From Candidatus Omnitrophota bacterium (lineage in GTDB: Bacteria; Omnitrophota; Gorgyraeia; Zapsychrales; Zapsychraceae), in contig JAGQKV010000026.1 in NCBI GenBank assembly GCA_020429915.1, forward strand, positions 2,217 through 66,216: 64,000 bases of DNA. The letters are read 5' to 3'. How positions within the stretch are numbered: position 1 is the stretch's first letter; each line of letters starts with the position of its first letter. A model generated the notes under the pieces. The model was given only the letters and a program-made list of their open reading frames with translations. It made no database searches and was not told where the DNA came from. The position numbers and the translations under genes are program-made. Of this stretch, positions 24,284-57,852 are shown piece after piece.

Positions 24284-25422
24284 CACATTATGACGCGTTG
24301 GTGATCGGGGCGGGTCCGGCGGGGATCGCCGCCGCCATCGAATTATCTTTAGCCGGCTGGGAAGTCTTGCTGATTGACAAGGCCGGTTTTCCCCGCGGAA
24401 AGGTATGCGGCGGTTTCGTCGGACCGGAGAACAAGGCCATCCTCGCCGAGTACGGATTGCTGGATGCCTTGGAGCGTCGCGGCGCCAAGTACGTAACGCA
24501 TCTGCAGATCAGCGCCGCCAACAATATCTCGGTGCGGGTCCCGATCTACTTCAACGGCCGGCCGGACTACGGATTGGGCATCAGCCGCTCCGCGATGGAC
24601 GAACTCCTTTTGGCCAAGGCCCTGGATATCGGCGTCAATTTTGAGGGCGGGATAACCGCCCAACACATGGTCCATCGCGGCGGCCACAGTACCTTCACGT
24701 TGGTGGGCCGGGACGGCCGCGCGCCCGCGGAGGCATCGGCAACGCACGTGATATATGCCAACGGGGGAGCCGTCAAAGGAAAAAGCCCGGCTTCCCGTTT
24801 ATACGGGGCATCATGCCTCTTTGATTCCATCGGCGACAGCGGGGCCGATGTGATCATGCATTTTCTCGATCAAGGCCACGCCGGGATCAACCGCTTCGAG
24901 GACGGATCGGTCAATGTCTGTTACGTCATTAAAGACGCGCTGTTTCGCCGGTTCAAAGGAGATTTTGACCAGGTGTGGCGGCATATGCTGGGAGCTAACC
25001 GAAACCTGTACCGGCAGATGAAGAACGCCCGTCCGCTGACCAGGTGGCACGGGACATTTGTCGATATGGACCGTCCGCTGCGGTTCTTTGACGGCCATGC
25101 CTTTTACACGGGGGACGCCTCTGCGGTGATTCATCCGGTGGCCGGCGGCGGGATAACGCTGGCGTTGAGCGGCGGAATCTTGCTGGGTTCCCTACTCGGC
25201 CGGCATCATCCGGAAGACGTCTTCCGTGCGGCCGAGGCAGAGGCATACGCGAAGGCCTTTCGCCGACGGTTTGCCTGGCCGTTACGGGCCTCACGGATGA
25301 TCGGGGCGGCGGGCCATACGGCGCCCGTGGCCAACTCCGTGATTCGCCTCCTGAAATGGAGGGAAGCCCATTTGCATCAGCTCTTCGATATTTTTCATCA
25401 ACCCGCCGTGTTACAAGCGTAA
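24280..25422 (+). CDS. FAD-dependent oxidoreductase (geranylgeranyl-reductase-like flavoprotein)
   Basis: Rossmann FAD motif YDALVIGAGPAGIAAA followed by GKVCGG. The ATGA start overlaps the YceI stop. Confidence 0.85.
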   Translation: MTHYDALVIGAGPAGIAAAIELSLAGWEVLLIDKAGFPRGKVCGGFVGPENKAILAEYGLLDALERRGAKYVTHLQISAANNISVRVPIYFNGRPDYGLGISRSAMDELLLAKALDIGVNFEGGITAQHMVHRGGHSTFTLVGRDGRAPAEASATHVIYANGGAVKGKSPASRLYGASCLFDSIGDSGADVIMHFLDQGHAGINRFEDGSVNVCYVIKDALFRRFKGDFDQVWRHMLGANRNLYRQMKNARPLTRWHGTFVDMDRPLRFFDGHAFYTGDASAVIHPVAGGGITLALSGGILLGSLLGRHHPEDVFRAAEAEAYAKAFRRRFAWPLRASRMIGAAGHTAPVANSVIRLLKWREAHLHQLFDIFHQPAVLQA

Positions 25423-25440
25423 TTTGTTAAGGAGTATACC

Positions 25441-26550
25441 ATGTCATCAATCAAGATTGTCGATATCGCGACCGCGAACCCGCCGTTGAAACTTACTCAG
25501 GAGGAGATTCTCAACCGGATCCTGAAGTCTCCCTTGCGTTCGGCTCGCGAAAAAAAGTTGTACACCAAGTTCCTCACCGAACCGTCCATCCGGACGCGCT
25601 ACGTCGCGATCGAAGACCAACCGGAGAAATTGTTTGAGGAAACCCAGGACGAAGCCATCGATCGTTTTCAGGTCCAGGCGACCCGTCTGGGTGCACAGGC
25701 CGTCAAGAAGCTGCTGCGCCGGACCGGGCTTAAGCCGCACGACATCGACGGCATCATCATCACCACCTGCACCGGATATCTGTGTCCCGGATTGACATCC
25801 TATATCTCCCAGGCCGTCGGTCTGCGTGAGGATATTTACGCGCTGGATATGGTGGGGACCGGATGCGGGGCGGCCTTGCCGGGGATGAAGTCCGCTTGGC
25901 AATATCTGACCGCCCATCCCGATTCGCGGGTCATTGTGCTGGCGGTGGAAATCTGCACGGCCACTTCCTATTGGAATGAAGATTTGGACCTCATTATTTC
26001 CAATTCGATATTCGGTGACGGAGCCGCCGCCTGCCTGTTGACGAACCGCGGGGAGAGTGCCGGTCTGGAAATCCGGGAGTTCCAATCGGTATTGTGGCCG
26101 CAGTACCGGGACGAGCTGCGTTACGTGACCAGGAACGGACGGCTGCTCAATGTCCTCAAGAAAGATGTGCCTTCGCTGGCGGCCTCCGCGTTTCACCGGA
26201 TTTATCAGCGTCTGACCAAGGACTTCACGGTCAAGATCGACCGGATGGCCGTGCATCCCGGCGGCCGCAAAATCCTCGATGAAATCGAGGCCATTTCTCC
26301 GTTCGGCGGCGATGCCTTGCGCCGTTCACGGTCGGTGCTGGCCCGCTACGGCAATATGTCTTCACCCAGCGTCCTGTATGTGCTGCGCGATATCCTGCAT
26401 AAAGATAACTGTCAGTCCGGCGAGACGGTCGGTATCTTTGCCTTCGGCGCGGGGATGACGGCCTTCGGTTGTCTCGCCGTGTATCGCGCGGCGGCCGTGC
26501 CCGACCGTTCCGTGAACCGTAAGGAGGTGTGCGATGGCGCTGTCGTCTGA
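25441..26550 (+). CDS. Type III polyketide synthase (chalcone/stilbene synthase-like)
   Basis: 369-aa thiolase-fold protein with a CHS-like N-terminus and a Cys-containing active-site region ITTCTGYLCPG. It is co-operonic with the oxidoreductase and the methyltransferase. Confidence 0.75.
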   Translation: MSSIKIVDIATANPPLKLTQEEILNRILKSPLRSAREKKLYTKFLTEPSIRTRYVAIEDQPEKLFEETQDEAIDRFQVQATRLGAQAVKKLLRRTGLKPHDIDGIIITTCTGYLCPGLTSYISQAVGLREDIYALDMVGTGCGAALPGMKSAWQYLTAHPDSRVIVLAVEICTATSYWNEDLDLIISNSIFGDGAAACLLTNRGESAGLEIREFQSVLWPQYRDELRYVTRNGRLLNVLKKDVPSLAASAFHRIYQRLTKDFTVKIDRMAVHPGGRKILDEIEAISPFGGDALRRSRSVLARYGNMSSPSVLYVLRDILHKDNCQSGETVGIFAFGAGMTAFGCLAVYRAAAVPDRSVNRKEVCDGAVV

Positions 26551-27292
26551 AAAAAAGGATTTAATCCGGCGGGCGGGTTTTCAGGAGCACTTCCAGGCGG
26601 ATTCCTGGTCGGACTTCAACCGGCAGTTCTTCAACGGGTTGGCTCCCAAGTATGACGCCCTGAATGAGGTGCTGACCTTCGGGCAGCAAAAGCGCTACAA
26701 AACCCGCGCGGTCCGCCGTTCCGGGATTACCCCCGGGGATCTGGTGCTGGATATCTGTACCGGGACCGGTGATATGGCCTTTTTGATTGCCGACGAATTC
26801 GAGCGCAGCACGGTGATCGGCATCGATGTTGCCGAATCAATGTTGCATATCGCCCGCCGGCGTGCGGCCGGGCGGCCGGATGTCGAATTTCGTGTGGGAG
26901 ACGCCATGGCCCTGCCGTTTACGGACGGTATGTTTGATGCGGCTGTCATGAGCTACGGGTTGCGAAACCTGGATGATTTGCAAAAAGGTATTGATGAGGT
27001 CCGACGGGTCGTGAGGCCCGGGGGGAAGATAACCTTCATCGATCTCGGAAAACCCGAGGGAGCCCTGCGTCAGTTGATTTATCGTGCGTACTTTGAAAAT
27101 CTTTTGCCGTTCCTCGGCCGCCACCTCTTTCACCGGGGCGAGTTCAATTCCTTCCGGTATTTACCGGAATCGAACAAGAATTTTCCCACACCCACCCAAC
27201 TGCGTGCGACGCTGACTGCCAGCGGACTGCGCGACATCCAAACCTACACTTATATGGGAGGGACGGTCCTGCAGCTGACCGCCGTCCGCTGA
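26534..27292 (+). CDS. UbiE/COQ5-family SAM-dependent methyltransferase
   Basis: DLVLDICTGTGDMAF and MSYGLRNLDD motifs. It overlaps the PKS gene by 17 nt. Confidence 0.85.
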   Translation: MALSSEKKDLIRRAGFQEHFQADSWSDFNRQFFNGLAPKYDALNEVLTFGQQKRYKTRAVRRSGITPGDLVLDICTGTGDMAFLIADEFERSTVIGIDVAESMLHIARRRAAGRPDVEFRVGDAMALPFTDGMFDAAVMSYGLRNLDDLQKGIDEVRRVVRPGGKITFIDLGKPEGALRQLIYRAYFENLLPFLGRHLFHRGEFNSFRYLPESNKNFPTPTQLRATLTASGLRDIQTYTYMGGTVLQLTAVR

Positions 27293-30001: not shown

Positions 30002-31372
30002 ATGGCAACCTACAAAACGATCGCCAAGACCGTTAAGGCGGAGGACGGGCGCGAGATTCATTACTCCGAAGTCTTGACGGGACTGACTTATGCCTTGGAC
30101 CTGCCGCTCGCTCAACCCGCGGGCCACACCCTGCGCACTTGCTGGATCGGCATGCATATCGGCCGCCAGTTGGAATTACCCCCCGACCAGCTTTGGGAAC
30201 TCTATTATACGCTTCTGCTGAAGGACGCGGGCGGCAGCCGCATCGGCTCGCGGCTGTTCGAACTGTTTTACAACGATGATTTGGTGGTCCAGAATGCCTA
30301 TCGCAAACTCAACCGGCAGCAGTTTAAGGACGTCCTGCGGTTTCTCAATAAGCACGCCGGGATCTATGAAGGGACGTTCGGCCAGTTAAGCCGGATCATC
30401 AACCTGCTGATTCAATGGAAAGCCGTGACCGCGGAATTGAGCAAGGTCAAAGGTGAAGCCGGTGCCGAGATCGTAAAGAATCTCGATCTTCCCGAAGCCG
30501 TTGCCGCGGCCGTATGCGCCGTCGATGAGCATTTTAACGGCAAGGGCCAGCCGCAGGGCTTGGAAGGGGACAAGATTCCCCTGTACGCGCGCATCGCCCT
30601 GCTCACTCAAGTCGTGGACGCCATCCAGGCCGAGGACGGCAAGGACGCCGCGCTGGCCGAGGCCGAAGGCCGCAGCGGCACTTGGTTTGATCCCCAGATT
30701 GTTGCCGCCTTCAAATCCGTTGCCGAAGAGGATGCCTTTTGGGCGGGATTGACCTGTGCCGAACTGCGCGCAGCGGTCATCAAGCTGGAACCGAAGGATA
30801 AGGTGATAATTCTCACCGAGGAAAAGCTGGATGATCTCGCCCAGGCGTTTGCCGTCATCATCGATAACAAAAGCGACTTTACCAAAGGACACAGCGCGCG
30901 CGTGGCCGAGTATGCCGAGGCCGTGGGTAAGCTGGACGGCATGGATATGCCGTCTTTGCGTCAATTGAAACGCGCCGCGCTGCTACATGATCTCGGCCGG
31001 CTGGGCATCAGTAACGCTATCCTTGACAAACCGGTGGCCATCACCAAGACGGAACATGAGATGACGCAAAAACATGCGGTGTGGTCGGAAGAAATTCTCG
31101 GACGCATTTCCATATTCCGTCAACTGGCCGTGGTGGCCGGTGCCCATCACGAACGCCTGGACGGACTCGGCTATCCCAACGGCAAGAAGAAAGATGATAT
31201 TCCCGGTGACTCCCGCATCATCACCGTGGCCGACATATACGACGCCCTGACCACCACCCGGCCACACCGGGAGCGCATGGACAACCCCAAGGCCTTTGAG
31301 ATCCTCAACGGTATGCGCGACGGCGCGTTGGAAGGCAAGTATGTGGATCTGTTGCGGAAGAATGTCGAATAA
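30002..31372 (+). CDS. HD-GYP domain phosphodiesterase (c-di-GMP) with an N-terminal degenerate HD-like domain
   Basis: HSARVAEYAE...LLHDLGRLGI...GAHHERLDGLGYPNG is a canonical HD-GYP signature. The N-terminal half has HTLRT...LLLKDAG, a degenerate HD. Confidence 0.85.
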   Translation: MATYKTIAKTVKAEDGREIHYSEVLTGLTYALDLPLAQPAGHTLRTCWIGMHIGRQLELPPDQLWELYYTLLLKDAGGSRIGSRLFELFYNDDLVVQNAYRKLNRQQFKDVLRFLNKHAGIYEGTFGQLSRIINLLIQWKAVTAELSKVKGEAGAEIVKNLDLPEAVAAAVCAVDEHFNGKGQPQGLEGDKIPLYARIALLTQVVDAIQAEDGKDAALAEAEGRSGTWFDPQIVAAFKSVAEEDAFWAGLTCAELRAAVIKLEPKDKVIILTEEKLDDLAQAFAVIIDNKSDFTKGHSARVAEYAEAVGKLDGMDMPSLRQLKRAALLHDLGRLGISNAILDKPVAITKTEHEMTQKHAVWSEEILGRISIFRQLAVVAGAHHERLDGLGYPNGKKKDDIPGDSRIITVADIYDALTTTRPHRERMDNPKAFEILNGMRDGALEGKYVDLLRKNVE

Positions 31373-31958: not shown

Positions 31959-33935
31959 ATGTCGGGGATAGCCGCTGCTATACATAACAATCTTGCAACA
32001 TCACTGCTCTTGGAACCACGGAGGCGGACACGTATTGTTTGTGCGGCTTGTCTGATTCTGTCCGCCTGTCCGACCGTAGTCCCGAGGGCTGCCGCGAACG
32101 AAGTTTCCCAAGATAACGAATCGGTATACCTGCCGAATGATTCCTACCCGACAGTGATGACTCACGACACGGTTGTCGTCTCGGCCACACGCATGCCCGC
32201 GCTCGTGGGCGAGATTTCACAGGATGTCTATATCATCTCAGGGGACGCGGTCCGCGATTTGCCTGCGCGTGATATTGCCGAGGCCCTGACGTACACTCCT
32301 GCCGTCGATGTTCAATTAAACGGTTTTCCCGGACGTCCCACTTCCTTATCAATTAATGGTTCCAGTGCGCGCCATGTCCGGTTGCTGGTCGACGGGATCC
32401 CCTTCAACACACAGCTCTCGGGCCAGGCCAATCCGGCCCAGATTCCGGTGGATTATGTCGGCAGTGTTGAAATCATAAAGGGCCCGGCGTCCAGTGCTTG
32501 GGGCTCGGCCTTGGGCGGAGTGGTTAATGTGATCTCCAGACCTGTCGGATCGGCCGCACAGCCGCAGGGGGCCGTCACCACTTCTTTTGCCGAGTTCGGA
32601 ACCTTCCGTCACAGCCTCGAATTGGCCGGCGCCGTCGATACGGCAGGCTATTTCTTTACGGGAAGCCACTTTGAGACCGACGGTCCGCGGCCCGTGTCCG
32701 ACGTCAAAGAAAGTAACGGTTTCGGGAAGATCAGCATTCCGCTGGCGGACGCTATGGCGATCACGGGACAGTTCGGATACGTCAACTCCGACTCGCAATA
32801 CAGAGGGCCCACAGACGCCGTTATCTCCGCTCAGCCTTACCGCTCGCGGTTCGGGAAGCTGCAAATCCAGTCTGAGGACGATGACCTGCAATGGTCGGCC
32901 GCCGTCAAATTCAATGATCAGGATATTCGCACCGACTCCATCAGTCCGATGACCGGGGACACGCTGTTCTCCACTATCAGCAGTGACTGGTACAAAGGCA
33001 TCAGTCTGAACGGCAAACTCGATCTCGACGACTACGGCAGCCTGGTGGCCGGCGTCGATTATGAGTATCACCGGTTGAAATCCAACAATTTCCTGGCGAG
33101 CAGTGAGGATCTGACGACGCAGGCTCCCTATATCAACTATTCCATCGGCCGTCGGAATTGGGACGTCGATCTGGGATTGCGCTTCGATCATAATGACCGC
33201 TTCGGATCCCAAGTCAGCCCCAGTCTGGGGGCGGTGTATTATTTTCATGATCCGGCGCGAACGTCCGTGCGTGCCCGGGTGGCCCGCGGTTTCAACGCGC
33301 CGCCATTGTTGTGGTTGTACAATGACGATCCGGCCCTGTTTGTCGGCGCCAATCCCGACCTTAAGGCGGAACGCGCCGTGGTCTATGAGGTCGGACTTAA
33401 ATCCCACTGGCAGAGGCTGCAATTTCAGTTGAATCTGTACCGGGCCAATGTTCGCGACGCGATCGCGCTGATGTTCGACGCGGACGATTTTGTGTTCCGG
33501 CAACGCAACTTCGAAGAGTTCCGGCGGCAGGGTGCGGAGATTTTGATCGATTACCGGCTGACCGATCAAATCACCCTGTATACCAGCGGCGCGTTCAATG
33601 ACGTTGAGAACCGGCAGACCGGTGAGACGGTGCGGGATCAGGGCATCGCCCGGCAGAAATTTACGTTCGGGACCCGCTATCGTAACACGCACGGTTTTTC
33701 CTGTTACCTTCTGGGGTACTATAACCGCTGGAGTTCTCCTCCCGACCTTAATCCCAATGACCGTAAACCCATCTTCGATCTGCGCATGTCCCAGGCCGTA
33801 AAGAAAGAAGGACGGGGGCCGGGGTTGGAAGTTTTCCTGAACGTCCACAATCTGACCAACAGCAAATATTGGTCCAGCGAGTCCTTTCCGTTAGCGAAAC
33901 GGTACTTTGAAGGCGGTATGACCATCCGTTTTTAG
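31959..33935 (+). CDS. TonB-dependent outer-membrane receptor
   Basis: Plug-domain motifs DTVVVSATR...LLVDGIPFN and a C-terminal terminal Phe (GMTIRF). The start is uncertain (in-frame TTG at 32010 would give a better signal peptide). Confidence 0.8.
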   Translation: MSGIAAAIHNNLATSLLLEPRRRTRIVCAACLILSACPTVVPRAAANEVSQDNESVYLPNDSYPTVMTHDTVVVSATRMPALVGEISQDVYIISGDAVRDLPARDIAEALTYTPAVDVQLNGFPGRPTSLSINGSSARHVRLLVDGIPFNTQLSGQANPAQIPVDYVGSVEIIKGPASSAWGSALGGVVNVISRPVGSAAQPQGAVTTSFAEFGTFRHSLELAGAVDTAGYFFTGSHFETDGPRPVSDVKESNGFGKISIPLADAMAITGQFGYVNSDSQYRGPTDAVISAQPYRSRFGKLQIQSEDDDLQWSAAVKFNDQDIRTDSISPMTGDTLFSTISSDWYKGISLNGKLDLDDYGSLVAGVDYEYHRLKSNNFLASSEDLTTQAPYINYSIGRRNWDVDLGLRFDHNDRFGSQVSPSLGAVYYFHDPARTSVRARVARGFNAPPLLWLYNDDPALFVGANPDLKAERAVVYEVGLKSHWQRLQFQLNLYRANVRDAIALMFDADDFVFRQRNFEEFRRQGAEILIDYRLTDQITLYTSGAFNDVENRQTGETVRDQGIARQKFTFGTRYRNTHGFSCYLLGYYNRWSSPPDLNPNDRKPIFDLRMSQAVKKEGRGPGLEVFLNVHNLTNSKYWSSESFPLAKRYFEGGMTIRF

Positions 33936-34061: not shown

Positions 34062-35696
34062 ATGTCAGTTAAATCGCAGTTGACTTTACCGTTGGTGATC
34101 CTGTCCATGTCGACTCTATTGATATCATTTGCTGCCTCCGCGGCCGTGCCCGTACCCGCAGTACAAACCCGTTCCCGCAATGATCCTGCCTGGAAGTCTC
34201 ACCCGTACGGAGGGACGCTGGTCTGGGGAAGCGTCTTTCCCCCGACGGCATTCAATCCCACCCGGAACTATACCGGTATTACCACGGCCCTGCAGGATCT
34301 TATTTTTAACCGGCTGGTCCGCCTCAACGCGGACGGTGAAATGGAACCGGACCTGGCCCGGTCCTGGGATATTTCCGATGACGGACGGGTGTATACTTTC
34401 CATCTGCGCGAAGGGGTCCGTTTTCATGACGGGGTGGAACTGACGGCCGAGGACATCCGCTTTACCTACGAACGCATTCTTGACGAAGCCCATGAGTCGC
34501 CGTACCGGCCGGACCTGATTCCGGTGGAGCGTCTCGAATGCCCGGACCGCTATACCTTTCGGGTTGTTTTTAAGACTCCCGATCCGTTATGGCTGAGGCG
34601 TATGGTGCGGGAGGTCCTGCCGAAGCATTTGCTTTCAGGTGACAGTGATCAAGCGGCGGCTTTTTATGACCGTCCGGTGGGAACCGGACCGTTTCGATTT
34701 GATTTTTGGGACAAGGAAAAGCGAACGCTGGGACTGAAAGCCAATACGGACTATTTTGAAGGCCGGCCGTATCTTGACGCGGTTCGCGTCAGGATCTATC
34801 CCGACAATTCGACATTATGGGCGGCGTTTATGCGCCGCGAGGTCGACCTGGTCCAGTTTATCAACCGCGAGGACTTTATGGTCGCCGCCGAGGATGCGTC
34901 GTTCCGGACGTATGCCGTCGAGTGGGGCATGTACAGTGCCTTGCTGTTTAATACCGAGGATCCGATATGGCACAATCCGCAACTCCGCAGGGCCGTGGCC
35001 CATGCGATCGATACGCGGCAGTTCCGGGAGACCTTCGACGTTCAGGACGGGAGATCGCCGGCAATTCCGGCTTCGGAGCGGACGATTCGGCCGTATCCGT
35101 TCGATCCGTCGCGGGCGGCGGCGATCCTGGATGAGGAGGGGTGGCGGATGGGGGGCTCCGGCATACGGCAAAAGGACGGCGAGGAATTGGAATTGCGTAT
35201 CCTGATCGATGAGCGCAGCCGTATGGACCGGATCGCGGCCCGCATTATTCGTCAAAATCTTGCCGAGGTGGGTGTGCGCGCCAAGGTTTTGCTTTACTCG
35301 GACGAGAAAGAACTCACAATGCCTCTTTGGCAAGAGCGCAGGCCGCAGGCCTGGGTGAGGCTCGTTCCCGATCCAGATTTCTTGGGTGTCCTGGCGCTGG
35401 AATTTTGGTATTCCTATTCCCACAACCGTGGCAAGATATGGAAATATCGTAATCAGCGAGCGGATATGCTGTTCGAACGTATCGAGAAGGAAAAGTCGGC
35501 GGCAAAAATTGCCATGTTGACGCAGGAGATGTGTGGTTCCATTTATGAGGATCAGCCCGCTAGTTATTTGTTTCTGCCTAAGAGCCTCTTCGCCGTGAGC
35601 GCTCGTTTTGCAAATACATCCGCGTACTTTACCAATAGCCAACCGACATTTACGATCAAAGACTGGTACATTACACCAACGAACACGCAGCCTTAA
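34062..35696 (+). CDS. ABC transporter substrate-binding protein, family 5 (peptide/nickel type), orphan
   Basis: SBP_bac_5 features GVRFHDGVELTAEDIRFTYERI and RPVGTGPFRF, plus a signal peptide. No permease or ATPase genes are adjacent. Confidence 0.85.
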   Translation: MSVKSQLTLPLVILSMSTLLISFAASAAVPVPAVQTRSRNDPAWKSHPYGGTLVWGSVFPPTAFNPTRNYTGITTALQDLIFNRLVRLNADGEMEPDLARSWDISDDGRVYTFHLREGVRFHDGVELTAEDIRFTYERILDEAHESPYRPDLIPVERLECPDRYTFRVVFKTPDPLWLRRMVREVLPKHLLSGDSDQAAAFYDRPVGTGPFRFDFWDKEKRTLGLKANTDYFEGRPYLDAVRVRIYPDNSTLWAAFMRREVDLVQFINREDFMVAAEDASFRTYAVEWGMYSALLFNTEDPIWHNPQLRRAVAHAIDTRQFRETFDVQDGRSPAIPASERTIRPYPFDPSRAAAILDEEGWRMGGSGIRQKDGEELELRILIDERSRMDRIAARIIRQNLAEVGVRAKVLLYSDEKELTMPLWQERRPQAWVRLVPDPDFLGVLALEFWYSYSHNRGKIWKYRNQRADMLFERIEKEKSAAKIAMLTQEMCGSIYEDQPASYLFLPKSLFAVSARFANTSAYFTNSQPTFTIKDWYITPTNTQP

Positions 35697-35765
35697 TATG
35701 ACAGAATCATGACGGAGAGTCGCCTTTTTGGGACACCCAAACCAAATCCGAAAGGAGGTGAGGAT

Positions 35766-35876
35766 ATGGACATTATCCAAGAAGGTAAAACTGACATAAA
35801 GGAAATGGCTGCCTTGGGCTGTTGTTGGCCGCCGGGAACACAAAACATGCAACTAACCGAACCCGAAGAGGATTAA
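35766..35876 (+). CDS. Candidate RiPP precursor peptide (36 aa): MDIIQEGKTDIKEMAALGCCWPPGTQNMQLTEPEED
   Basis: Strong RBS AAAGGAGGTG 5 nt upstream of the ATG. It lies immediately upstream of a radical SAM/SPASM enzyme with an RRE-like N-terminus and an ABC exporter, and it contains a GCCWPPG core. Confidence 0.45.
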   Translation: MDIIQEGKTDIKEMAALGCCWPPGTQNMQLTEPEED

Positions 35877-35898
35877 TTATTTCTTTACCCACTAAAAG

Positions 35899-35930
35899 CT
35901 GTGCCGGGGACGCTTGCGTCCCCGGCACAG
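35899..35930 (+). terminator. Perfect 15-bp inverted repeat hairpin between the precursor ORF and the rSAM gene (attenuator/transcript-stabilising hairpin, no U-tract)
   Basis: CTGTGCCGGGGACGC tt GCGTCCCCGGCACAG. Confidence 0.45.
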
Positions 35931-35951
35931 CGGCCAAAGGGAGGGTAAATT

Positions 35952-37316
35952 ATGCGGCTTTCGCATCACACTATCGTCGTCAAAGACTATCCGTCCAAAG
36001 GTGAACACCTCCTTTACAGTACGCGGACCCAGGCCCTGGTCAAGATTGAGGACGCACTGCGTTTGCTGCTGGACCGGCTTCCCTCCGCGGGGCCGGCCGA
36101 TACGGTCCCCTACCAACAGGAAATCAAACAATTGCACGACATGGGCCTGATCGTCACCGGCGATGCGGAAGAACAGTCCCGGTTGCGCGAGCATCTGAAC
36201 CAGATCAAATTTAGTCATGACGAGTCCTGTCTCCCGGTCACCATCCTGACCACCTATGGCTGCAATTTTAAATGCACTTATTGTTTTGAGGAGTCCACCC
36301 GTACGAACGACAGGTTGAGTGCCGAACATCAGCAAAAGATCATCCGCTGGCTGAAAGACCGGGTCAGGACGTTGGGATATCGAAGCCTTTACTTGAACTA
36401 CTACGGCGGCGAACCGTTGTTGAATCAACCGGCCATCGAACAGATCTCCACGGAAATGAGACGTTGGTGCCGGGAGTCAGGCGTCGGCTTCGGCATGGCA
36501 TTGCAGACCAACGGCTACCTGCTGACTCCGCAAGTGGTTCGTAAATTTCTTGAGTTGAATCTGGTCGGCGTGCGGGTCAGCCTGGACGGGGTCGGAGAGG
36601 ACCATGACCGCTACCGCCCGCTGCGCGGCGGCGGCGGGACGTTCACGCGCATCATGCGTAACATTGTCGACTGCGTGGACCTGGTGCCCATCGGAATCTC
36701 GATCGGCTTTGACAAAGGAGACGTGGAGCCCATCGAAAAACTGGTCAATCACTTCGAGGAACTCGGAATCCTGCATAAGCTCGGCCGGATCATCACCTCG
36801 CCCATTACACCCACGGTCGGACCGGCGGGCCGTCCGGAGGCCGTGCGGGGCTCCGAGTGCATGTGCCATTCGCAGGATGCCACTTTGGCTGCGGCGATGC
36901 GCCGCATTAACGCGCTGTTTGAGGCCAAGGGGATCAACAAGGTCAAAAGCGGCATGGCCACCAATGTGTGCCCGCTGACCCGTGAGAACGGCGGGGTCAC
37001 CATCGACCAGGAGGGCAGGCTTTATAAATGCAATTCGCTGCTCGGTCATCCGGAGTTTTCCGTCGGGCATGTTGACGACGCGCAATATAATGAGACGGGC
37101 CGCCGCTTCCGGGACCTGGACGTGTGGCGGCAGTGCCCGATCGACTGCACGTACCTGCCGATGTGCAGCGGCGGTTGCCGGTTAATGGCGTTTGTCGGCG
37201 AATCAAAAAGTTTCCGGGTGGCCGCCTGCAAAAAACCGTACTTAAATGAAATGGCGGCCGAATTTATCAAACGCGACTATGACCGTTTGACGGCGAAACA
37301 AAAGGCGGCGGTATGA
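35952..37316 (+). CDS. Radical SAM / SPASM-domain peptide-modifying enzyme with an N-terminal RRE (PqqD-like) domain
   Basis: CxxxCxxC motif CNFKCTYC at about residue 104, after a roughly 100-aa N-terminal extension resembling PqqD/RRE (HLLYSTRTQALVKIEDALRLLLDRL). The C-terminus is Cys-rich (CPLTRENGG...CNSLLGH...CPIDCTYLPMCSGGCRL), typical of SPASM. Confidence 0.85.
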   Translation: MRLSHHTIVVKDYPSKGEHLLYSTRTQALVKIEDALRLLLDRLPSAGPADTVPYQQEIKQLHDMGLIVTGDAEEQSRLREHLNQIKFSHDESCLPVTILTTYGCNFKCTYCFEESTRTNDRLSAEHQQKIIRWLKDRVRTLGYRSLYLNYYGGEPLLNQPAIEQISTEMRRWCRESGVGFGMALQTNGYLLTPQVVRKFLELNLVGVRVSLDGVGEDHDRYRPLRGGGGTFTRIMRNIVDCVDLVPIGISIGFDKGDVEPIEKLVNHFEELGILHKLGRIITSPITPTVGPAGRPEAVRGSECMCHSQDATLAAAMRRINALFEAKGINKVKSGMATNVCPLTRENGGVTIDQEGRLYKCNSLLGHPEFSVGHVDDAQYNETGRRFRDLDVWRQCPIDCTYLPMCSGGCRLMAFVGESKSFRVAACKKPYLNEMAAEFIKRDYDRLTAKQKAAV

Positions 37317-39043
37317 CATTCGGATCCCTGCTGCGGCCTTATCGCTGGCGTATCATCATTCTGGTGCTCTGTTTGTTTGCCATTAACGGTTTGGCATTGG
37401 CCCTGCCGTGGGGCATCAAATTGTTGATCGATGATGTCCTTATCCGGCGGGATATCCCCGGCCTGCATCGGCTCAGTATTTATTTGATCGTGATCCTGCT
37501 GGTGCGCGCCGGCCTGAATTTCTTCCGCTACCGGCAAAGCGCGTTGATGGGTGAGCGGATTATTTGTCGCGTCCGGGAACGGCTCTACGAGAAGGCGCTG
37601 CGCCTGGCCGTTCCTTCTTTCCGTGCGCAGGGGGCGGGCAGTTTATTAACCCGCATGACGGGCGATCTCGACAGCCTGCGCCGGTTTTTATTCGGCGAGG
37701 CAGTGGAATTTGTCTATTCCATCCTCGGCGTGGCCATGCTGCTGGCGGTACTTGTGGTCCTGAATGTCAAGCTGGCCGCGGTGGCGTTGCTGGGCGTGCC
37801 TGTTTTCTTAAGGATTTATTTTCGCCTGTTCCCGCAACTCCGTTCCAATTATCGTGCGGTGCGTGAATCCTGGGGCGCGCTGATCGCGCGGGCCGGCGAG
37901 GTCCTCAATGCCGTGATGACCGTCCGCACGCTTAACGGGCAGGACCGGGAGCGGGCGTATCTGCGGACCGGGCAGGAGGGCCTGTTGCATACGGCGGCAA
38001 GCGTCCACCATTTGAACGCCGGATTATGGATGGCGGTGGACCTGTTTTCCTCGTTGTGCACGGTGGCTGCTTTATGGCTGGGCGGGTTGGAGGTGATCCG
38101 CGACCGGATGACGCAGGGCGAGCTGGTGGCGTTCTACACTTACTTGGGGATGCTGCTTGCGCCGTTGGCCCGGCTGACCCTGATACAGGGAACGCAACAG
38201 GAGGCGGCGGCCGCATTGGAGCGGATCAACGAAATCATGGACATCCCGCATGTCGAGCCGCCCGATCGTCCGGGGGCCGCGGCGGAAGACATCGCCGGTC
38301 AGCTTTCATTCATGGGAGTGTCCTTCGGCTATGCGGAGGGCGGGCCGGTGTTGCGCGGCGTTAATTTTCAGGTCAGACAAGGGGAAACCGTCGGCATCGT
38401 GGGCGCCAGCGGTACGGGCAAAACCACCCTCGTCAATTTGTTGCTGCGCTTTTACCGCCCCGACGCGGGCCGCATTCTCCTCGACGGACGCCCGCTGGAT
38501 GACTTTGATCTGCACGGTTTTCGGCGGCAGGTGGCCGTGGTCCTGCAGGATGACGTCCTGCTCAGCGGTACGATCCGGGAAAACATTGCCTACGGACACG
38601 CAGCGGGTCCGGGTGCCGTGGAAGAGGCCGCCCGCCTGGCCTGCGCGCACGATTTTATCATGGCCTTACCGAAAGGCTATGAAACGGCGGTCGGCGAGAA
38701 AGGCGACGGTTTGTCCACGGGACAACGCCAGCGGATTGCCATCGCCCGCGCCTTGTTGCGCAGGCCGGCCGTGTTGATCCTTGATGAAGCGACCTCTGCT
38801 GTGGATGCCATGACCGAAAACCGGATCCAGGACGCCGTCCGGAGGGTCATGGCGGGGAAGACCACCCTCATCATCGCCCACCGCTTTTCCACGCTGGCCG
38901 ATGCGGACCGGATTATCGTTCTCGACGGCGGCAGGGTCGTCGAGTACGGGGACCACAGCTATCTTTTGAACAAAGGCGGGATTTATAGTAGCCTATATTG
39001 GGAGCAATTCCGTTCGGCGGACATCCCCGCCGGATCCGGTTAA
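37313..39043 (+). CDS. ABC transporter, fused permease/ATP-binding exporter, with no peptidase domain
   Basis: Six TM helices, then Walker A GASGTGKTT, signature LSTGQRQRIAIARAL and Walker B ILDEATS. It overlaps the rSAM stop by 4 nt. Confidence 0.9.
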   Translation: MTFGSLLRPYRWRIIILVLCLFAINGLALALPWGIKLLIDDVLIRRDIPGLHRLSIYLIVILLVRAGLNFFRYRQSALMGERIICRVRERLYEKALRLAVPSFRAQGAGSLLTRMTGDLDSLRRFLFGEAVEFVYSILGVAMLLAVLVVLNVKLAAVALLGVPVFLRIYFRLFPQLRSNYRAVRESWGALIARAGEVLNAVMTVRTLNGQDRERAYLRTGQEGLLHTAASVHHLNAGLWMAVDLFSSLCTVAALWLGGLEVIRDRMTQGELVAFYTYLGMLLAPLARLTLIQGTQQEAAAALERINEIMDIPHVEPPDRPGAAAEDIAGQLSFMGVSFGYAEGGPVLRGVNFQVRQGETVGIVGASGTGKTTLVNLLLRFYRPDAGRILLDGRPLDDFDLHGFRRQVAVVLQDDVLLSGTIRENIAYGHAAGPGAVEEAARLACAHDFIMALPKGYETAVGEKGDGLSTGQRQRIAIARALLRRPAVLILDEATSAVDAMTENRIQDAVRRVMAGKTTLIIAHRFSTLADADRIIVLDGGRVVEYGDHSYLLNKGGIYSSLYWEQFRSADIPAGSG

Positions 39044-39077: not shown

Positions 39078-40883
39078 ATGAAGATTCTTTCCTCACCCAT
39101 TCAGCGACTGTTTCCCAAACGTATCTGGCACCAGATCTTCGCCGTTTTGGTGTGTGTCATCGTAATCCCGTTGATTGTTCTCGGTCTGCTGTTAATCCGG
39201 ACCGCGCACCAGGCCATCAAAACGACGGTCTTCCGTGACCACAAGGAGGTGGCTGTGCAGGCCACCGCTCAGGTTGCCGAACGGATTGAGGGGGCGCGGC
39301 AGTCGTTGCTGATCGCGGCTTCGGTATTATCGGCCCTGCCCGACGATCCCTGGCGGCAGGAAACCGTCATTGTCGAACTGTCCCTGAATAATCCGGCGTT
39401 TGAACGGGTCGCCGTCGTAAATCCGGACGGCCGGGAAACGGCCACATCGCAGTTGGGTACTGTTCTGCGGGACCGGTCGGCGGAACACGCCTTTCGCCGC
39501 GCCCTCACCGGTGACTCATTCCTGTCCAAAGTCCGTTTGACTGACGGCGATGTGCCGTATCTCACCCTGGCCGAACCCCTGCGTCAGGCGGGCAAGGTCG
39601 TCGGCGTGCTGATGGCCGATCTCAATGTGCGCGGCATCTGGGATAACGTGGACCAGATTCAATTCGGGGAACACGGTCTCGCCTATATTATCGACGGCAA
39701 AGGGCGCATCATCGCCCACCGGGACAAGAAGCTGGTCATGCAGGAGGCCTCCGTTCCCGATCCGCGGATTCTGCAAGACATCCTTTCCGGCCGTTCCGGT
39801 AACGTGGCCACGACCGGACCGGCGGGTGAGAAACTGCTGGTGTCCTACGCACCCATTCGCAACGTGAATTGGGGACTGGTGATCTCTCAGCCTGAGCGCG
39901 ATGCGTACGCTTACGCACAGACCATGCGCGCCCAGTCGTGGTTGATCATCTTGCTGGGGATCCTGGCCACGGTCCTGACCAGTTTTCTGCTGGCGCGGTT
40001 TGTCGGGCGTCCGATCAATGAGCTCATCTCGGCGACCGAGCGTCTTGCCAAAGGGGATTTTACGCAGCGTTTCCGCGTGCGTCAGCGCAATGAAATCGGC
40101 AGGTTGATGTTCTCGTTCAACCGCATGACGGCGCAGTTGCGCCGGGCGCGCGACATGCGCAATCTGTCGGTGATCGGCAACGCCGCCACCCGTCTGGCGC
40201 ATGAACTGAAGAATTCCCTCCAGATGGTAACCACCTTCGTCAAACTTTTACCGGAGCGTTCGCACGACAAAAAATTCCTGCAGGAGTTCGCGGACACCAT
40301 TCCCGGCGAACTGGACAGCTGGAATGCATCGTTGCGCAACATGATGATCTTCTCGCAGCGGGAATCGCCCTTTCCCACGACCGCCGTCGATATCAACGTC
40401 CTGCTCGGCGACATGGCCCTCCTGACCAAACTCAAGCTGCGCCAGATGGACATCCGGATCGTCACCGATCTGCCGCCGGGGCTCCCGCCGGTCGAAGGCA
40501 ATGAAGACAAACTGAAACAGGTTTTTCTCAACATGATGACCAACGCGCTGGAAAGCGCCCCGCGCGGTACGACCGTGGAAGTGACGGCATGCAGGCAGCC
40601 GGCAGGTGCGCCCGGGGGAAAGGATGCCGTGGAGATCATGATGAGCAATGCCTGCCTAAACCTCGAAGGTTTCGAGCCCGAACGGATCTTCGAGCCTTTT
40701 TATACCACCAAAACCGGAGGATTCGGCCTGGGGCTGTCGATCAGCCGCGAGGTGGTGGAGCGCCACGGCGGTTGCATGTGGGCGCAGGCCGATACCGTCC
40801 GGCAGCGTATTTCCTTCATTGTTCGTCTTCCCGAGGCCGGGGCCATGCGTCCAACAGGCCCTGATCCGGACCTGTCCCGCTGA
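39078..40883 (+). CDS. Sensor histidine kinase with periplasmic sensing domain and HAMP
   Basis: Two TM helices flank a periplasmic region of about 250 aa. HAMP (LAKGDFTQRFRV), H-box (ATRLAHELKNSLQ), HATPase (GGFGLGLSISREVVERHGG). Confidence 0.85.
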   Translation: MKILSSPIQRLFPKRIWHQIFAVLVCVIVIPLIVLGLLLIRTAHQAIKTTVFRDHKEVAVQATAQVAERIEGARQSLLIAASVLSALPDDPWRQETVIVELSLNNPAFERVAVVNPDGRETATSQLGTVLRDRSAEHAFRRALTGDSFLSKVRLTDGDVPYLTLAEPLRQAGKVVGVLMADLNVRGIWDNVDQIQFGEHGLAYIIDGKGRIIAHRDKKLVMQEASVPDPRILQDILSGRSGNVATTGPAGEKLLVSYAPIRNVNWGLVISQPERDAYAYAQTMRAQSWLIILLGILATVLTSFLLARFVGRPINELISATERLAKGDFTQRFRVRQRNEIGRLMFSFNRMTAQLRRARDMRNLSVIGNAATRLAHELKNSLQMVTTFVKLLPERSHDKKFLQEFADTIPGELDSWNASLRNMMIFSQRESPFPTTAVDINVLLGDMALLTKLKLRQMDIRIVTDLPPGLPPVEGNEDKLKQVFLNMMTNALESAPRGTTVEVTACRQPAGAPGGKDAVEIMMSNACLNLEGFEPERIFEPFYTTKTGGFGLGLSISREVVERHGGCMWAQADTVRQRISFIVRLPEAGAMRPTGPDPDLSR

Positions 40884-41000: not shown

Positions 41001-41729
41001 ATGATGCTCTCCGAAGAAATCCTGGTTATTGATGACGATGACCGCGTCATTAAAAGTCTGAAGGTGGCCTTGCTGGAATACCGGATAACGGCCTTCATTC
41101 GCGGTCGGGAGGCGTTGACTTATTTGCGCAAACCCAATCTGATCCATTTGGTCCTGCTGGACGTGATGATGCCCGACATGGACGGGCTGTCCGTTCTGAG
41201 AGAAATCAAGGCCATCAACAGGGACATCGGTGTGATCATGATGACCGGTTACGGCTCCAAAGACGTGATTATCGAGGCCTTGCGGTTGCATGCGGATGAC
41301 TTTGTCGAGAAGCCCTTTGAGATCGAAGACATCAAGGCGAAGATCCGGACCGTCCTGCAGGAAAAAGTCAGCGATCCGCGGCATCAGGATGACGTCAACG
41401 GTCACCTCAGGAGGATTAAGAGTTTTGTTCGCCGTGATCCGAAGAACGCGTCGCTGGAATTGATCGCCGAACAAATGCAACTCAGTCCGCGGTACATCAG
41501 CCGGATGTTCATCAAGCACAACGGCGAGAGCTTTCGGGAATACAAAATGAAGATCAAGATGGAAAAGGCCCGCGAATTACTGACCCGGTCGCGTCTGTCC
41601 ATCAATGAAATAGCGATTAACCTCGGATATCAGAACGGAGAGTCATTCATGCGGTTGTTCAAGCGTGAGAATGCCATGACCCCCACCCAGTACCGGAGCA
41701 ATTACGGAGGCGGTAAACGCGGACAATGA
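41001..41729 (+). CDS. Response regulator with AraC-type HTH output domain
   Basis: Receiver motifs LVIDDDD, LLDVMMPDMDG, MMTG, VEKPF. The C-terminal INEIAINLGYQNGESFMRLFKRENAMTPTQYR is an HTH_AraC. Confidence 0.85.
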   Translation: MMLSEEILVIDDDDRVIKSLKVALLEYRITAFIRGREALTYLRKPNLIHLVLLDVMMPDMDGLSVLREIKAINRDIGVIMMTGYGSKDVIIEALRLHADDFVEKPFEIEDIKAKIRTVLQEKVSDPRHQDDVNGHLRRIKSFVRRDPKNASLELIAEQMQLSPRYISRMFIKHNGESFREYKMKIKMEKARELLTRSRLSINEIAINLGYQNGESFMRLFKRENAMTPTQYRSNYGGGKRGQ

Positions 41730-42133
41730 ATCCAACCCTGGAGCACATAATTTTGATCATCGATGCGCATCCGGTGTACGCGCTGAAATTGGAGGGTTTC
41801 CTGCGGGGGTTGACCTTTCGCCATATATCGCTGACGGAAAACGGCGGCGCCGGGATCGAAGCCGCGCGCGGGGACAAACCCGGTTTGGCGCTGGTCAGCG
41901 GCATGCTTCCGGATATGGACGCGACGGAATGCTGCCGGCAAATCCGCGCCGTGAGTCCTGCGACCAGGATTATTGTGCAGACCGGTCTTTTTACCGAAGA
42001 TGCGCAGATCGGGGCCCTGCGCGACAGCGGGGCCGATCATGTACTGCCGCGTCGGGAAAAGGACTGGTCGCCGCTGCAACGTGCCGTGGAAGATTGTCTC
42101 GGATTGCCCGCTGGTTCGCAAAAATCCGGCTGA
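41726..42133 (+). CDS. Atypical receiver-domain protein (pseudo-receiver with Ser in place of the phospho-acceptor Asp)
   Basis: Receiver fold (ILIIDAH...LALVSGMLPDMDA...IIVQTG), but the D57-equivalent is Ser (LVS) and the D13-equivalent is Ala. The ATGA start overlaps the upstream RR stop. Confidence 0.6.
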   Translation: MNPTLEHIILIIDAHPVYALKLEGFLRGLTFRHISLTENGGAGIEAARGDKPGLALVSGMLPDMDATECCRQIRAVSPATRIIVQTGLFTEDAQIGALRDSGADHVLPRREKDWSPLQRAVEDCLGLPAGSQKSG

Positions 42134-44126: not shown

Positions 44127-45109
44127 TGTGTTATTCCAGGACATCGGTAACAGATTTAAAATAGTTGATTCTGCGCTGAACCGGTGTCAGGCCCTTTAGA
44201 CTTAAGTGAGGGCGATTAAAATTATAGTGTTGAACGAAGGCATCAAGAACCTGTGAGCGATGAAGACTATTGCGCAAGCGGATACGATTATAGCACTCAT
44301 CATCAATGGTTCTAAAAAAGCGCTCAACTTTGCCATTTGTTTCAGGATGATACGGTCGCAAAAGGTAATGCCGAATGCCTAAATCCCGGCACGTTTGGGC
44401 GAATAAAGTTAAACGACTGGCATGAGCGGCATAGCGCATCGAAAAACAAAAAGCATTATCGGTTAACACGGCCTTAACAGGATAATTGTAGTATTCTAAG
44501 GCCAAATATAAAAAATCTGTGGCCGCACGAGTAGTTGCGGCCGGATAAATGCGACAGAAAGCTTCTCTGGAGTAATCATCCAGAATAGCAAACTGATGCT
44601 CTTTGGGATGTCCTCGACGTAGCGGAACAAGCGTTTTAGTATCCAGATGTAAGAGTTCACCGGGATAAGTTTTTTCATATCGCTGGGGCTTCTTCCTCGG
44701 TTTTTTCGGCTGCAGGTACTGGAGGCCTTGCCGGCAAAGCGTACGATAAACGCTGCTGTGGCTTAAACCCAAACGTAATGCAATGCGAGCTGGGCCGATC
44801 TTCTCCTTTACTCGCAGGGATATGATCTGTTGTATGACATGATCCGATAATGCGCCAGGCGAATTCTGGGGCCGGGTAGAATGATCCTCAAGTCCCTCGA
44901 TGCCCAGTTTCTGATACCGATTTAACCATTTATAGATGGTCTTTCGGCTTAAATCAAAGAGCTTAGCGATATCGGTGACAGAATTACCGTTATTAATTAA
45001 TTCGATGCACCGTAACTTGACTTTACGTGATATTCGGGAATTCATCGGACACCCTCCTTTGGTGCAATTCTACCAAAGAAATGTGTTACCGATGTCCTGA
45101 AACATCACA
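44127..45109. mobile_element. Intact IS481-family insertion sequence (about 983 bp) with about 31-bp imperfect terminal inverted repeats (TGTG...CACA) and a 6-bp target site duplication GCTAAC
   Basis: Left end TGTGTTATTCCAGGACATCGGTAACAGATTT versus the reverse complement of the right end TGTGATGTTTCAGGACATCGGTAACACATTT. GCTAAC lies at 44121-44126 and 45110-45115. Confidence 0.8.
44131..45045 (-). CDS. IS481-family DDE transposase (HTH + rve integrase core)
   Basis: N-terminal HTH (VTDIAKLFDLSRKTIYKWLNRY) and an rve core with the DDE context LHLDTK...LTDNAFCF...HPETNGKVERF. Confidence 0.9.
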   Translation of the reverse strand: MNSRISRKVKLRCIELINNGNSVTDIAKLFDLSRKTIYKWLNRYQKLGIEGLEDHSTRPQNSPGALSDHVIQQIISLRVKEKIGPARIALRLGLSHSSVYRTLCRQGLQYLQPKKPRKKPQRYEKTYPGELLHLDTKTLVPLRRGHPKEHQFAILDDYSREAFCRIYPAATTRAATDFLYLALEYYNYPVKAVLTDNAFCFSMRYAAHASRLTLFAQTCRDLGIRHYLLRPYHPETNGKVERFFRTIDDECYNRIRLRNSLHRSQVLDAFVQHYNFNRPHLSLKGLTPVQRRINYFKSVTDVLE

Positions 45110-55752: not shown

Positions 55753-55788
55753 AAGATATCGAGAAACACTTAACAATCGGAGAGCCCC

Positions 55789-57774: not shown

Positions 57775-57852
57775 TATCCGCGTACGGATGTTACGTAAGT
57801 CCATTGCCGTTCTGTATAAATTGCAATTAGCATATTCCCTTGGGGAGGTGTA

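Follow-up and report, generated by a model that had tools for sequence, protein, structure and literature searches.

A conserved Cys-Cys-aromatic-Pro peptide and its predicted radical SAM/SPASM maturase in an Omnitrophota gene cluster with a TonB-dependent receptor

The precursor, maturase, and exporter genes

We analyzed a short open reading frame (ORF) and its neighbors in a 64-kb window (i.e., the whole stretch of DNA examined; 64,000 nt; positions 2,217 to 66,216 of contig JAGQKV010000026.1, assembly GCA_020429915.1) from a Candidatus Omnitrophota bacterium. Positions below are those of the window. An earlier note, made from the sequence alone, had proposed that this 36-codon ORF, a radical S-adenosylmethionine (SAM) enzyme gene located 75 nt downstream, and an exporter gene form a cluster (35700 to 39043) for a ribosomally synthesized and post-translationally modified peptide (RiPP). 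The ORF, its ribosome-binding site, and the 75-nt gap were all present at the positions given there. The features of this central part are as follows.

35754-35758, + strand: Shine-Dalgarno sequence GGAGG, 7 nt before the ATG of the precursor gene, as read from the sequence
35766-35876, + strand: precursor peptide gene, 36 codons (36 aa, MDIIQEGKTDIKEMAALGCCWPPGTQNMQLTEPEED), with the leader MDIIQEGKTDIKEMAALG, the core CCWPPGT, and then an acidic variable tail
35898-35931, + strand: perfect G+C-rich hairpin of 15 bp in the gap between the precursor and radical SAM genes, with no U-tract on the + strand here
35952-37316, + strand: predicted radical SAM/SPASM peptide maturase, 454 aa, with an N-terminal RiPP recognition element (RRE; residues ~1 to 90)
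37313-39043, + strand: ATP-binding cassette (ABC) half-transporter of the exporter type (transmembrane plus nucleotide-binding domains), 576 aa, without a C39 peptidase domain

The radical SAM and transporter genes share 4 nt (37313 to 37316). Pfam detected ABC_membrane and ABC_tran fused in the transporter and no peptidase domain, which agrees with the fused permease/ATPase exporter without a protease domain that had been described. The proposed RiPP architecture (precursor, radical SAM/SPASM enzyme, and exporter) holds: the peptide is conserved, the maturase carries an RRE, and the exporter is of the ABC type. Judged from sequence and fold comparisons, the system is most probably a RiPP precursor with a radical SAM/SPASM maturase of the CteB-like class that has an N-terminal RRE.

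Conservation of the 36-codon ORF

The comparison set consisted of 20 loci for which upstream DNA was available and whose radical SAM enzymes were 37 to 75% identical to the window enzyme. A homologous small ORF was present directly upstream of the radical SAM gene in 19 of these 20 loci, i.e., the outcome of the conservation check that the earlier note had suggested for the micro-ORF. When 19 distinct precursor peptides were aligned, M1, C19, and P22 were invariant, and G7 and C20 were conserved in at least 90% of the sequences. The consensus was MEII..G.D.V.....L.CCWPPGT, followed by a variable tail. Two parts are conserved, namely, a leader (M-E/D-I/V-I..G) and a Cys-Cys-aromatic-Pro core, the latter with the pattern CC-[W/F/Y]-P-[P/A/V]-[G/M/S] in the window clade and with an invariant part of only four to six residues. 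The Trp of the core was Phe or Tyr in 6 of the 19 peptides; a subclade whose enzymes were 37 to 40% identical to that of the window had CCFPPG, CCFPAG, CCFPVG, or CCYPPG and a basic tail. The Lys residues upstream of the core (K8 and K12), to which attention had been drawn, do occur in the window peptide and are not conserved across the aligned peptides, making them a feature of the window only. A Trp/Lys C-C crosslink, one of the chemistries considered earlier, is disfavored, since the leader Lys residues vary between loci and the sister clade has Phe or Tyr at the Trp position.

Codons for the conserved residues varied synonymously between loci (Cys, TGT/TGC; Pro, CCG/CCA/CCT/CCC; Gly, GGA/GGG/GGC). 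Because the core and leader are conserved while the Cys, Pro, and Gly codons vary in this manner, the precursor is taken to be under selection at the amino acid level. In each of the 16 loci examined, a strong purine-rich Shine-Dalgarno sequence (GGAGG in most and GGGGG in two) preceded the homologous start codon by a few nucleotides. Throughout the 64-kb window, the precursor was the one Shine-Dalgarno-preceded ORF of 20 to 70 aa that contained "CC," and the window held no second copy of the precursor. The exact 36-aa peptide was present as a called, unnamed ORF on 42 public contigs. A peptide database search with a 55-aa version extended to an upstream start returned two unnamed peptides only, the query being short enough that few exact five-residue word matches are possible. 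These peptides fall into an annotation gap, seldom being called as genes and never named. On this comparative evidence, we regard the 36-codon ORF as a real, conserved gene. A variant precursor on a short contig (L088; 265 to 360) contained a single Cys (TCSFPVG).

Class and fold of the radical SAM enzyme

Pfam assigned Radical_SAM (PF04055; E, 2.9e-19) and Fer4_12 to the enzyme. The CNFKCTYC motif, which the earlier note had located at residue 104 together with a Cys-rich SPASM C terminus, provides C104, C108, and C111; these were invariant in 75 of 75 homologues and make up the radical SAM CX3CX2C motif within a partial TIM barrel. The SPASM cysteines were equally constant (C340-X14-G-X4-C360, C395-X3-C399-X5-C405-X3-C409, and C426, each in 75 of 75; C303, in 74 of 75), giving eight conserved Cys in this region. 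It contains the seven-Cys motif for two auxiliary Fe-S clusters and aligns to the SPASM region of CteB, with a first spacing of CX3C in place of the canonical CX2C.

Among the NCBIfam models, the best match was TIGR04280 ("geopeptide radical SAM maturase"; 246.6 bits; E, 4.6e-73; cutoff, 400), which aligned over the full length of the enzyme. The next matches (TIGR04463, CefB, FlmE/OhkG, Clo7bot, and PapB) were all below their cutoffs as well. A sequence-profile search identified CteB (PDB 5wgg; E, 1.5e-31) as the best solved relative. An AlphaFold2 model built from 75 homologues was of high confidence (predicted local distance difference test [pLDDT], 93.9; predicted template modeling [pTM] score, 0.90), and Foldseek ranked CteB first against it (template modeling [TM] score, 0.64 to 0.68; 460 to 470 columns), followed by ChlB, the anaerobic sulfatase-maturating enzyme (anSME), and SuiB. 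Given that the radical SAM and SPASM cysteines are invariant, that CteB is the nearest solved protein, and that the nearest curated families are maturases of Cys-containing peptides, the enzyme is probably a peptide maturase.

The N-terminal 90 residues were predicted to form three strands and then three helices. Modeled in isolation, this domain had a pLDDT of 92.8 and its Foldseek matches were almost only RREs (TbiB1, TigE, LynD, CteB, and SuiB). The PqqD Pfam model matched neither the whole enzyme nor any of 23 N-terminal domains, and the profile of the domain had no meaningful sequence match in the PDB. An RRE had been suspected in this extension from its PqqD-like appearance; the modeled fold bears out the RRE, at the level of fold, with no PqqD similarity at the level of sequence.

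The earlier note had named assignment to an anSME or to a PQQ- or Moa-type enzyme lacking an RRE as the finding that would overturn its reading. The anSME model (TIGR03942) scored 73.5 bits (cutoff, 349.45), PqqE was outside the 25 best NCBIfam families of the enzyme, a MoaA-type assignment was ruled out on scores, and the RRE fold was present. The same evidence bears on the idea that the micro-ORF is fortuitous and that the radical SAM enzyme modifies a protein (e.g., the substrate-binding protein encoded upstream), as anSME or QhpD do. The anSME score lies far from the cutoff, an RRE is the hallmark of leader peptide recognition, and 19 of the 20 loci keep the ORF, the Shine-Dalgarno sequence, the leader, and the core with synonymous codon change. 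We consider this explanation close to refuted.

Conserved gene neighborhood

The unit extends on both sides of the three genes described above. The additional genes are listed here.

31959-33935, + strand: TonB-dependent outer-membrane receptor with a plug and a beta-barrel (PF07715 and PF00593), without an N-terminal signaling domain
34062-35696, + strand: periplasmic substrate-binding protein (SBP) of family 5 (peptide/nickel/opine type; Pfam SBP_bac_5; E, 3.5e-70) with a signal peptide
39078-40883, + strand: sensor histidine kinase with periplasmic dCache, HAMP, HisKA, and HATPase domains (Pfam)
41001-41729, + strand: response regulator with a receiver (REC) domain and an AraC-type helix-turn-helix (HTH) domain (Pfam)
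41726-42133, + strand: stand-alone receiver-domain protein (REC only; Pfam)

We examined synteny by tblastn of the window proteins against the related loci and by Pfam annotation of three long contigs, and the counts include only loci that extend far enough. The recurrent order was TonB receptor, family-5 SBP, precursor, radical SAM enzyme, ABC exporter, dCache-HAMP histidine kinase, REC-AraC regulator, and REC protein. An orthologue of the receptor was located upstream of the SBP or radical SAM gene in 16 of 16 loci, the SBP gene immediately before that of the precursor in 19 of 20, the dCache kinase after the radical SAM or ABC gene in 15 of 16, and the REC-AraC regulator in 11 of 11. In the sole kinase exception (L005), an IS3-type transposase pair (4045 to 5123, - strand) directly followed the ABC gene at the kinase position. 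Orthologues of the REC-only protein were found in L001, L003, L004, L008, L162, and L164. The ABC exporter was the least constant component, being present in 15 of 18 loci and absent in L001, L004, and L161. The interval 35700 to 39043 proposed previously does contain the genes assigned to it; the unit is larger, and the receptor, SBP, kinase, and AraC-type regulator are steadier members than the exporter. From these patterns, we place the probable cluster boundaries at 31959 and 42133 and regard the exporter as a likely accessory to a core of receptor, SBP, and sensor.

The family relationships of these proteins were mostly distant. All NCBIfam receptor models scored far below their cutoffs on the TonB receptor, for which the nearest solved proteins were YncD, PqqU, CirA, and BtuB. 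The best NCBIfam models for the SBP were NikA (167.8 bits; cutoff, 393) and CntA, i.e., binders of nickel and metallophores, and its PDB matches were 8efz, AppA, 4oet, and NikA proteins. The cluster contained neither a permease gene nor an ATPase gene that would go with the SBP. The ABC protein matched MsbA-related and HlyB-type models below cutoff, with ABCB1, TmrAB, Sav1866, MsbA, and PCAT1 as its PDB relatives.

This gene content bears on the possibility of an antimicrobial RiPP (a bacteriocin of the sactipeptide or ranthipeptide type) that is exported by the ABC transporter, with the receptor, SBP, and two-component system serving immunity or regulation or being unrelated neighbors. The precursor-radical SAM/SPASM-ABC architecture and the nearest structural relatives would suit such a product, as would the two-component system, since bacteriocins are commonly autoregulated in this way. 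Against it, the exporter is the part most often missing (3 of 18 loci), the cluster contains no immunity-type gene, and there is no obvious reason for a producer to keep the receptor and the SBP, at the frequencies given above, for its own toxin. We consider an antimicrobial role improbable.

Several further observations concern the surroundings of these clusters. HD-GYP-type (HD_5) phosphodiesterase genes lay beside the cluster in the window (30002 to 31372, + strand), in L164 (147 to 3358), with ZnuA and ABC-3 metal uptake genes ahead of it, and in L090 (9606 to 10127); this weak association did not extend to L001 to L008. In L162, a module of receptor, DUF4154, CHASE8 kinase, and REC genes (2061 to 6137) was situated just upstream of the CCWPP cluster, and the window itself encodes a CHASE8 histidine kinase followed by two tandem TonB receptors with 65% mutual identity (54196 to 59838, + strand). 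Receptors thus seem to be paired with kinases repeatedly in these genomes. We rejected the two tandem receptors (55789 to 59838) as parts of the present system, their identity to the cluster receptor being only 22%.

The intergenic hairpin

The hairpin between the precursor and radical SAM genes of the window had a fold energy of -42.8 kcal/mol (z, -6.4). Hairpins of 10 to 18 bp, unrelated in sequence, occupied the corresponding gap in all 16 loci examined, and several of them were followed by a T-run. We propose that the hairpin acts as an attenuator or as an mRNA-stabilizing stem-loop. An intergenic hairpin is the usual means in RiPP operons of holding the precursor in excess. The only match in the window at relaxed Rfam scores, that of the hairpin to a microRNA model, was dismissed as chance. 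The DNA separating the SBP gene from the precursor gene showed no sigma-70-like promoter.

Relation to geopeptides

The profile searches of the enzyme and the peptide, also suggested in the earlier note, gave as best matches the two members of the geopeptide pair, TIGR04280 (maturase) and TIGR04229 (peptide), and both were below cutoff. These models (NCBIfam/TIGRFAMs) are defined in silico only and are of the kind "hypoth_equivalog." TIGR04229 was the sole NCBIfam match of the window peptide (13.3 bits; E, 0.058; cutoff, 30). The previous statement that the precursor resembles no recognized family is therefore correct for curated families, and it missed the relatives below threshold (13.3 of 30 bits for the peptide and 246.6 of 400 bits for the enzyme). 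We found no paper on TIGR04280/TIGR04229 geopeptides or on CCWPPG in the literature library that was searched; the Bacillus "gageopeptides" are a name-alike and unrelated. Nor did this library yield relevant work that connects radical SAM RiPPs with TonB receptors or metallophores, or ranthipeptides with Omnitrophota.

To the window system we compared true geopeptide loci, represented by distant radical SAM genes from a metagenome scan that were 25 to 29% identical to the window enzyme. Their enzymes (L094, L095, L097, L098, L101, and L104) scored 534 to 602 bits on TIGR04280, and some of the peptides beside them (e.g., MSDVVVILDEGVKEEELAQTACCPSSTSRA) were near the TIGR04229 cutoff (19.9 to 23.5 bits). 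The window peptide resembles geopeptides in its short leader with a hydrophobic-hydrophobic-x-x-Gly element ~12 residues before an invariant Cys-Cys, and in its short tail; this is a resemblance and not a curated criterion. An hhalign comparison of the window clade and geopeptide peptide sets was in register (P, 0.0047; probability, 7.5%), which is suggestive only. Unlike in the window core, the CC of geopeptides is followed by small or polar residues, with no aromatic residue. The window clade also has more genes than the geopeptide loci, namely, those for the family-5 SBP, the dCache kinase, the REC-AraC regulator, and usually the ABC exporter.

A TonB receptor adjoined the peptide and enzyme genes in all five true geopeptide loci with upstream DNA, as a tandem pair in L095. 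The receptor is the one constant partner of the peptide and the enzyme across the superfamily, as would be expected for a ligand that is recaptured. True geopeptide loci otherwise lay amid housekeeping genes, except for L104 (9416 to 13211; radical SAM enzyme, 534 bits), in which the radical SAM gene is followed by a PF04392 SBP, a HAMP kinase, and a sigma-54 response regulator. This arrangement is a nonhomologous version of the SBP, kinase, and regulator module of the window. With both scores below the curated cutoffs, the window system is best described from its sequences as a putative sister clade of the geopeptide family.

Some variants of the geopeptide theme were also encountered. Three geopeptide-like precursors (L099, 691 to 906; L102, 258 to 575; and L103, 184 to 363) had long Lys/Ala-rich repeat leaders (KKKATKKKVAKKK...) similar to histone H1 tails, with ends reading ..CCRGLAMMIR, ..CCAYGIYRPGR, or ..CCSIGAIKFLH; such a leader is unusual for a RiPP. 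In L090 (9375 to 9455) and L116 (9495 to 9587), candidate peptides were located downstream of the enzyme gene (MKLQVVKKGTRKDDKKTLYCFWFVTA and MKVIKVGKKYGRVHPMGCCWYIYGGYMLGW, respectively), and the radical SAM enzymes of these two loci scored 288 and 337 bits on TIGR04280.

Comparison with characterized systems

The enzyme shares the order of RRE, radical SAM barrel, and SPASM region with CteB/SCIFF-type (PDB 5wgg and 5why) and PapB-type maturases, and, like them, it is preceded by a gene for a short Cys-containing substrate peptide. It differs from the CteB and PapB types in sequence (17 to 19% identity; 87.5 of 425 bits on the SCIFF maturase model, TIGR03974, and 111.9 of 340 bits on the PapB model). 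Regarding the substrates, SCIFF peptides have six Cys in about 45 residues, in contrast to two adjacent Cys here, and the window precursor lacks the CxxxD repeats of PapB-type ranthipeptides. The aromatic-X-X triplet (W/F/Y-P-P/A/V) with interchangeable aromatic residues is reminiscent of the substrates of triceptide (YhhB-type) and streptide enzymes, which belong to a common superfamily with the window enzyme; on the other hand, the score on the YhhB model was 69 of 445 bits, and the Lys required in streptide is not conserved here. By sequence, the precursor appears to lie outside every curated family, and no experimentally described RiPP family is known to have a Cys-Cys-aromatic-Pro core.

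The methanobactin operon encodes a Cys-containing precursor, the TonB receptor MbnT, the OppA/AppA-like binder MbnE, and the exporter MbnM, and it has no known inner-membrane importer (PMC7558416). The window cluster parallels this set part by part, with a short Cys-containing precursor, a maturase, an inner-membrane exporter, a TonB importer, an OppA/AppA-like binder, and no inner-membrane importer in the cluster. The differences are that the maturase is an oxygen-independent radical SAM/SPASM enzyme rather than MbnBC, that the exporter is of the ABC rather than the MATE (multidrug and toxic compound extrusion) type, that regulation is by a two-component system rather than by sigma/anti-sigma factors, and that the precursors share no sequence relationship. 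No gene of the cluster belongs to MbnB (DUF692) or MbnC, all of them being members of other families.

The pyrroloquinoline quinone (PQQ) system similarly has a TonB receptor for its product (PqqU), which raises the alternative that the core is excised to give a small cofactor of peptide origin, as for PQQ or mycofactocin, and that the receptor and SBP salvage the cofactor as PqqU does PQQ. An invariant core of merely four to six residues would fit this idea, and so would the combination of a radical SAM/SPASM enzyme with an RRE, which is also found in PqqE/PqqD and MftC/MftB. PqqU is among the nearest solved relatives of the receptor, for the plug region only (E, 1.3e-17). Conversely, genes for a peptidase, an oxidase, or another tailoring enzyme are absent from the cluster, which specifically lacks equivalents of PqqB, PqqC, and PqqF; the precursor lacks Glu-X3-Tyr; no dependent enzyme is conserved nearby; and PqqE and the mycofactocin maturase score far below the best families of the enzyme. 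A cofactor precursor is, in our estimation, even less probable than an antimicrobial peptide, and the fortuitous ORF discussed above is less probable still.

A proposed route for the product and its possible functions

Given the observed gene content, conservation, gene order, enzyme class, and fold, we infer the following route, in which leader binding, core modification, export, reimport, capture, and sensing are all predicted steps. The precursor would be translated in excess over the enzymes, with the hairpin attenuating read-through into the radical SAM gene. Its leader (M-E/D-I/V-I..G) would dock as a beta-strand on the RRE of the radical SAM/SPASM enzyme. The 5'-deoxyadenosyl radical and the two auxiliary Fe-S clusters would then modify the Cys-Cys-aromatic-Pro core, the likeliest outcome being one or two Cys-derived C-S links. 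The product would be exported by the ABC half-transporter, or by one encoded elsewhere where the locus lacks the ABC gene. Reimport over the outer membrane would occur via the TonB receptor and capture in the periplasm via the family-5 SBP, while the dCache kinase and the REC-AraC regulator would tune expression.

As to the chemistry, the parsimonious guess is a link or a ligand group that derives from Cys, because the nearest characterized enzymes make thioethers between Cys sulfur and carbon and because Cys is the sole residue conserved superfamily-wide. In this clade, the aromatic-Pro-Pro triplet could carry a three-residue cyclophane; that could not be the chemistry shared by the superfamily, since geopeptides have no aromatic residue, and for the same reason the shared chemistry would have to center on the Cys-Cys pair.

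Our tentative reading is that the RiPP product is secreted, recaptured, and sensed by its own producer, which is plausible but short of probable. A sulfur-ligand metallophore is the function we favor within it, and this specific role accounts for most of the modest confidence that we place in the reading. Such a product would be an oxygen-independent analogue of the methanobactin arrangement; the parallels with that operon, the constancy of the TonB receptor, and the nearness of the SBP to NikA and CntA speak in its favor. A number of observations weigh against this proposal. The superfamily has no member of established chemistry, and the formation of thioethers would use up thiols that could bind a metal. 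MbnE was not among the PDB matches of the SBP at E of ≤1e-10, the SBP being a generic peptide/nickel/opine binder. No leader protease or outer-membrane exporter was found in the cluster. As for metal-dependent control, none of the Rfam models attained the gathering score anywhere in the window, so that no riboswitch was detected; no Fur-box-like site was found upstream of the receptor genes (best, 7 to 9 mismatches of 19); and no k-mer was common to most loci upstream of these genes. One locus (L081, 1 to 3987; radical SAM enzyme, 53% identical), the only exception to the presence of the precursor, has the receptor gene followed by the radical SAM gene after 139 AT-rich nucleotides, a gap with neither an SBP gene nor a precursor ORF. 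Finally, the conserved two-component system fits a signaling peptide equally well.

This last point leads to the main rival, in which the product is an autoinducing quorum or kin signal that is too large for porins. It would enter via the TonB receptor and be presented by the SBP to the dCache kinase, upon which the REC-AraC regulator would activate the operon, and no inner-membrane importer would be needed. The conservation of the kinase and AraC-type regulator with the cluster and an SBP unaccompanied by a permease or ATPase are in line with this idea. Moreover, an SBP of another family lies in series with a kinase and a regulator at the corresponding position in L104, suggesting cosensing by SBP and kinase, and RiPP operons that are autoinduced, such as those of lantibiotics, typically combine a precursor with an attenuating hairpin. 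However, the minimal and probably ancestral unit, that of true geopeptide loci (L094, L095, and L098), consists of receptor, peptide, and radical SAM enzyme, without an adjacent sensor, and TonB receptors are overwhelmingly importers of nutrients and metal chelates. The kinase does not discriminate between the two ideas, as two-component systems also sense loaded siderophores (e.g., the periplasmic sensing by PfeRS/PirRS). We regard a signal as unlikely, with a real share of the remaining probability.

Returning to the metallophore, a broader and more doubtful version of that proposal would include both clades. The Cys-Cys peptides of the window clade and of the geopeptide clade may be unrecognized and widespread oxygen-independent RiPP metallophores of anaerobes, with methanobactin as their functional counterpart. 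After secretion, they would pick up a thiophilic metal that is scarce in sulfidic habitats (Ni, Cu, Zn, Co, or Mo/W) and be reimported via a dedicated TonB receptor, and, in Omnitrophota, sensed via the SBP and the dCache kinase. If true, such metallophores would be the radical-chemistry answer of anaerobes to the oxygen-dependent MbnBC of methanotrophs and would explain how Omnitrophota acquire trace metals; if the product is instead a signal, it would be a rare instance of an outer-membrane-bearing bacterium in which a peptide signal passes through a TonB receptor. The association with a TonB receptor, constant over enzyme identities of roughly 25 to 75%, together with the SBP and kinase of the window clade, offers an unusually concrete functional clue for a RiPP of an uncultured phylum. 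The geopeptide relatives exist only as database models, and the small, near-invariant core and the confident enzyme model make the system an easy target for coexpression.

Other genes in the window

Elsewhere in the window, an IS481-like transposase gene (HTH plus rve; 44131 to 45045, - strand) was located ~1.5 kb past the cluster, and positions 51205 to 52527 (+ strand) encode a toxin kinase of the HipA type, in which both the N- and the C-terminal HipA domains are present. A single ORF of 3278 aa occupied positions 24 to 9860 (+ strand). Adjacent genes for a FAD-dependent oxidoreductase, a type III polyketide synthase (chalcone synthase-like), and a UbiE/COQ5-type methyltransferase (24280 to 27292, + strand) form a small second biosynthetic cluster.

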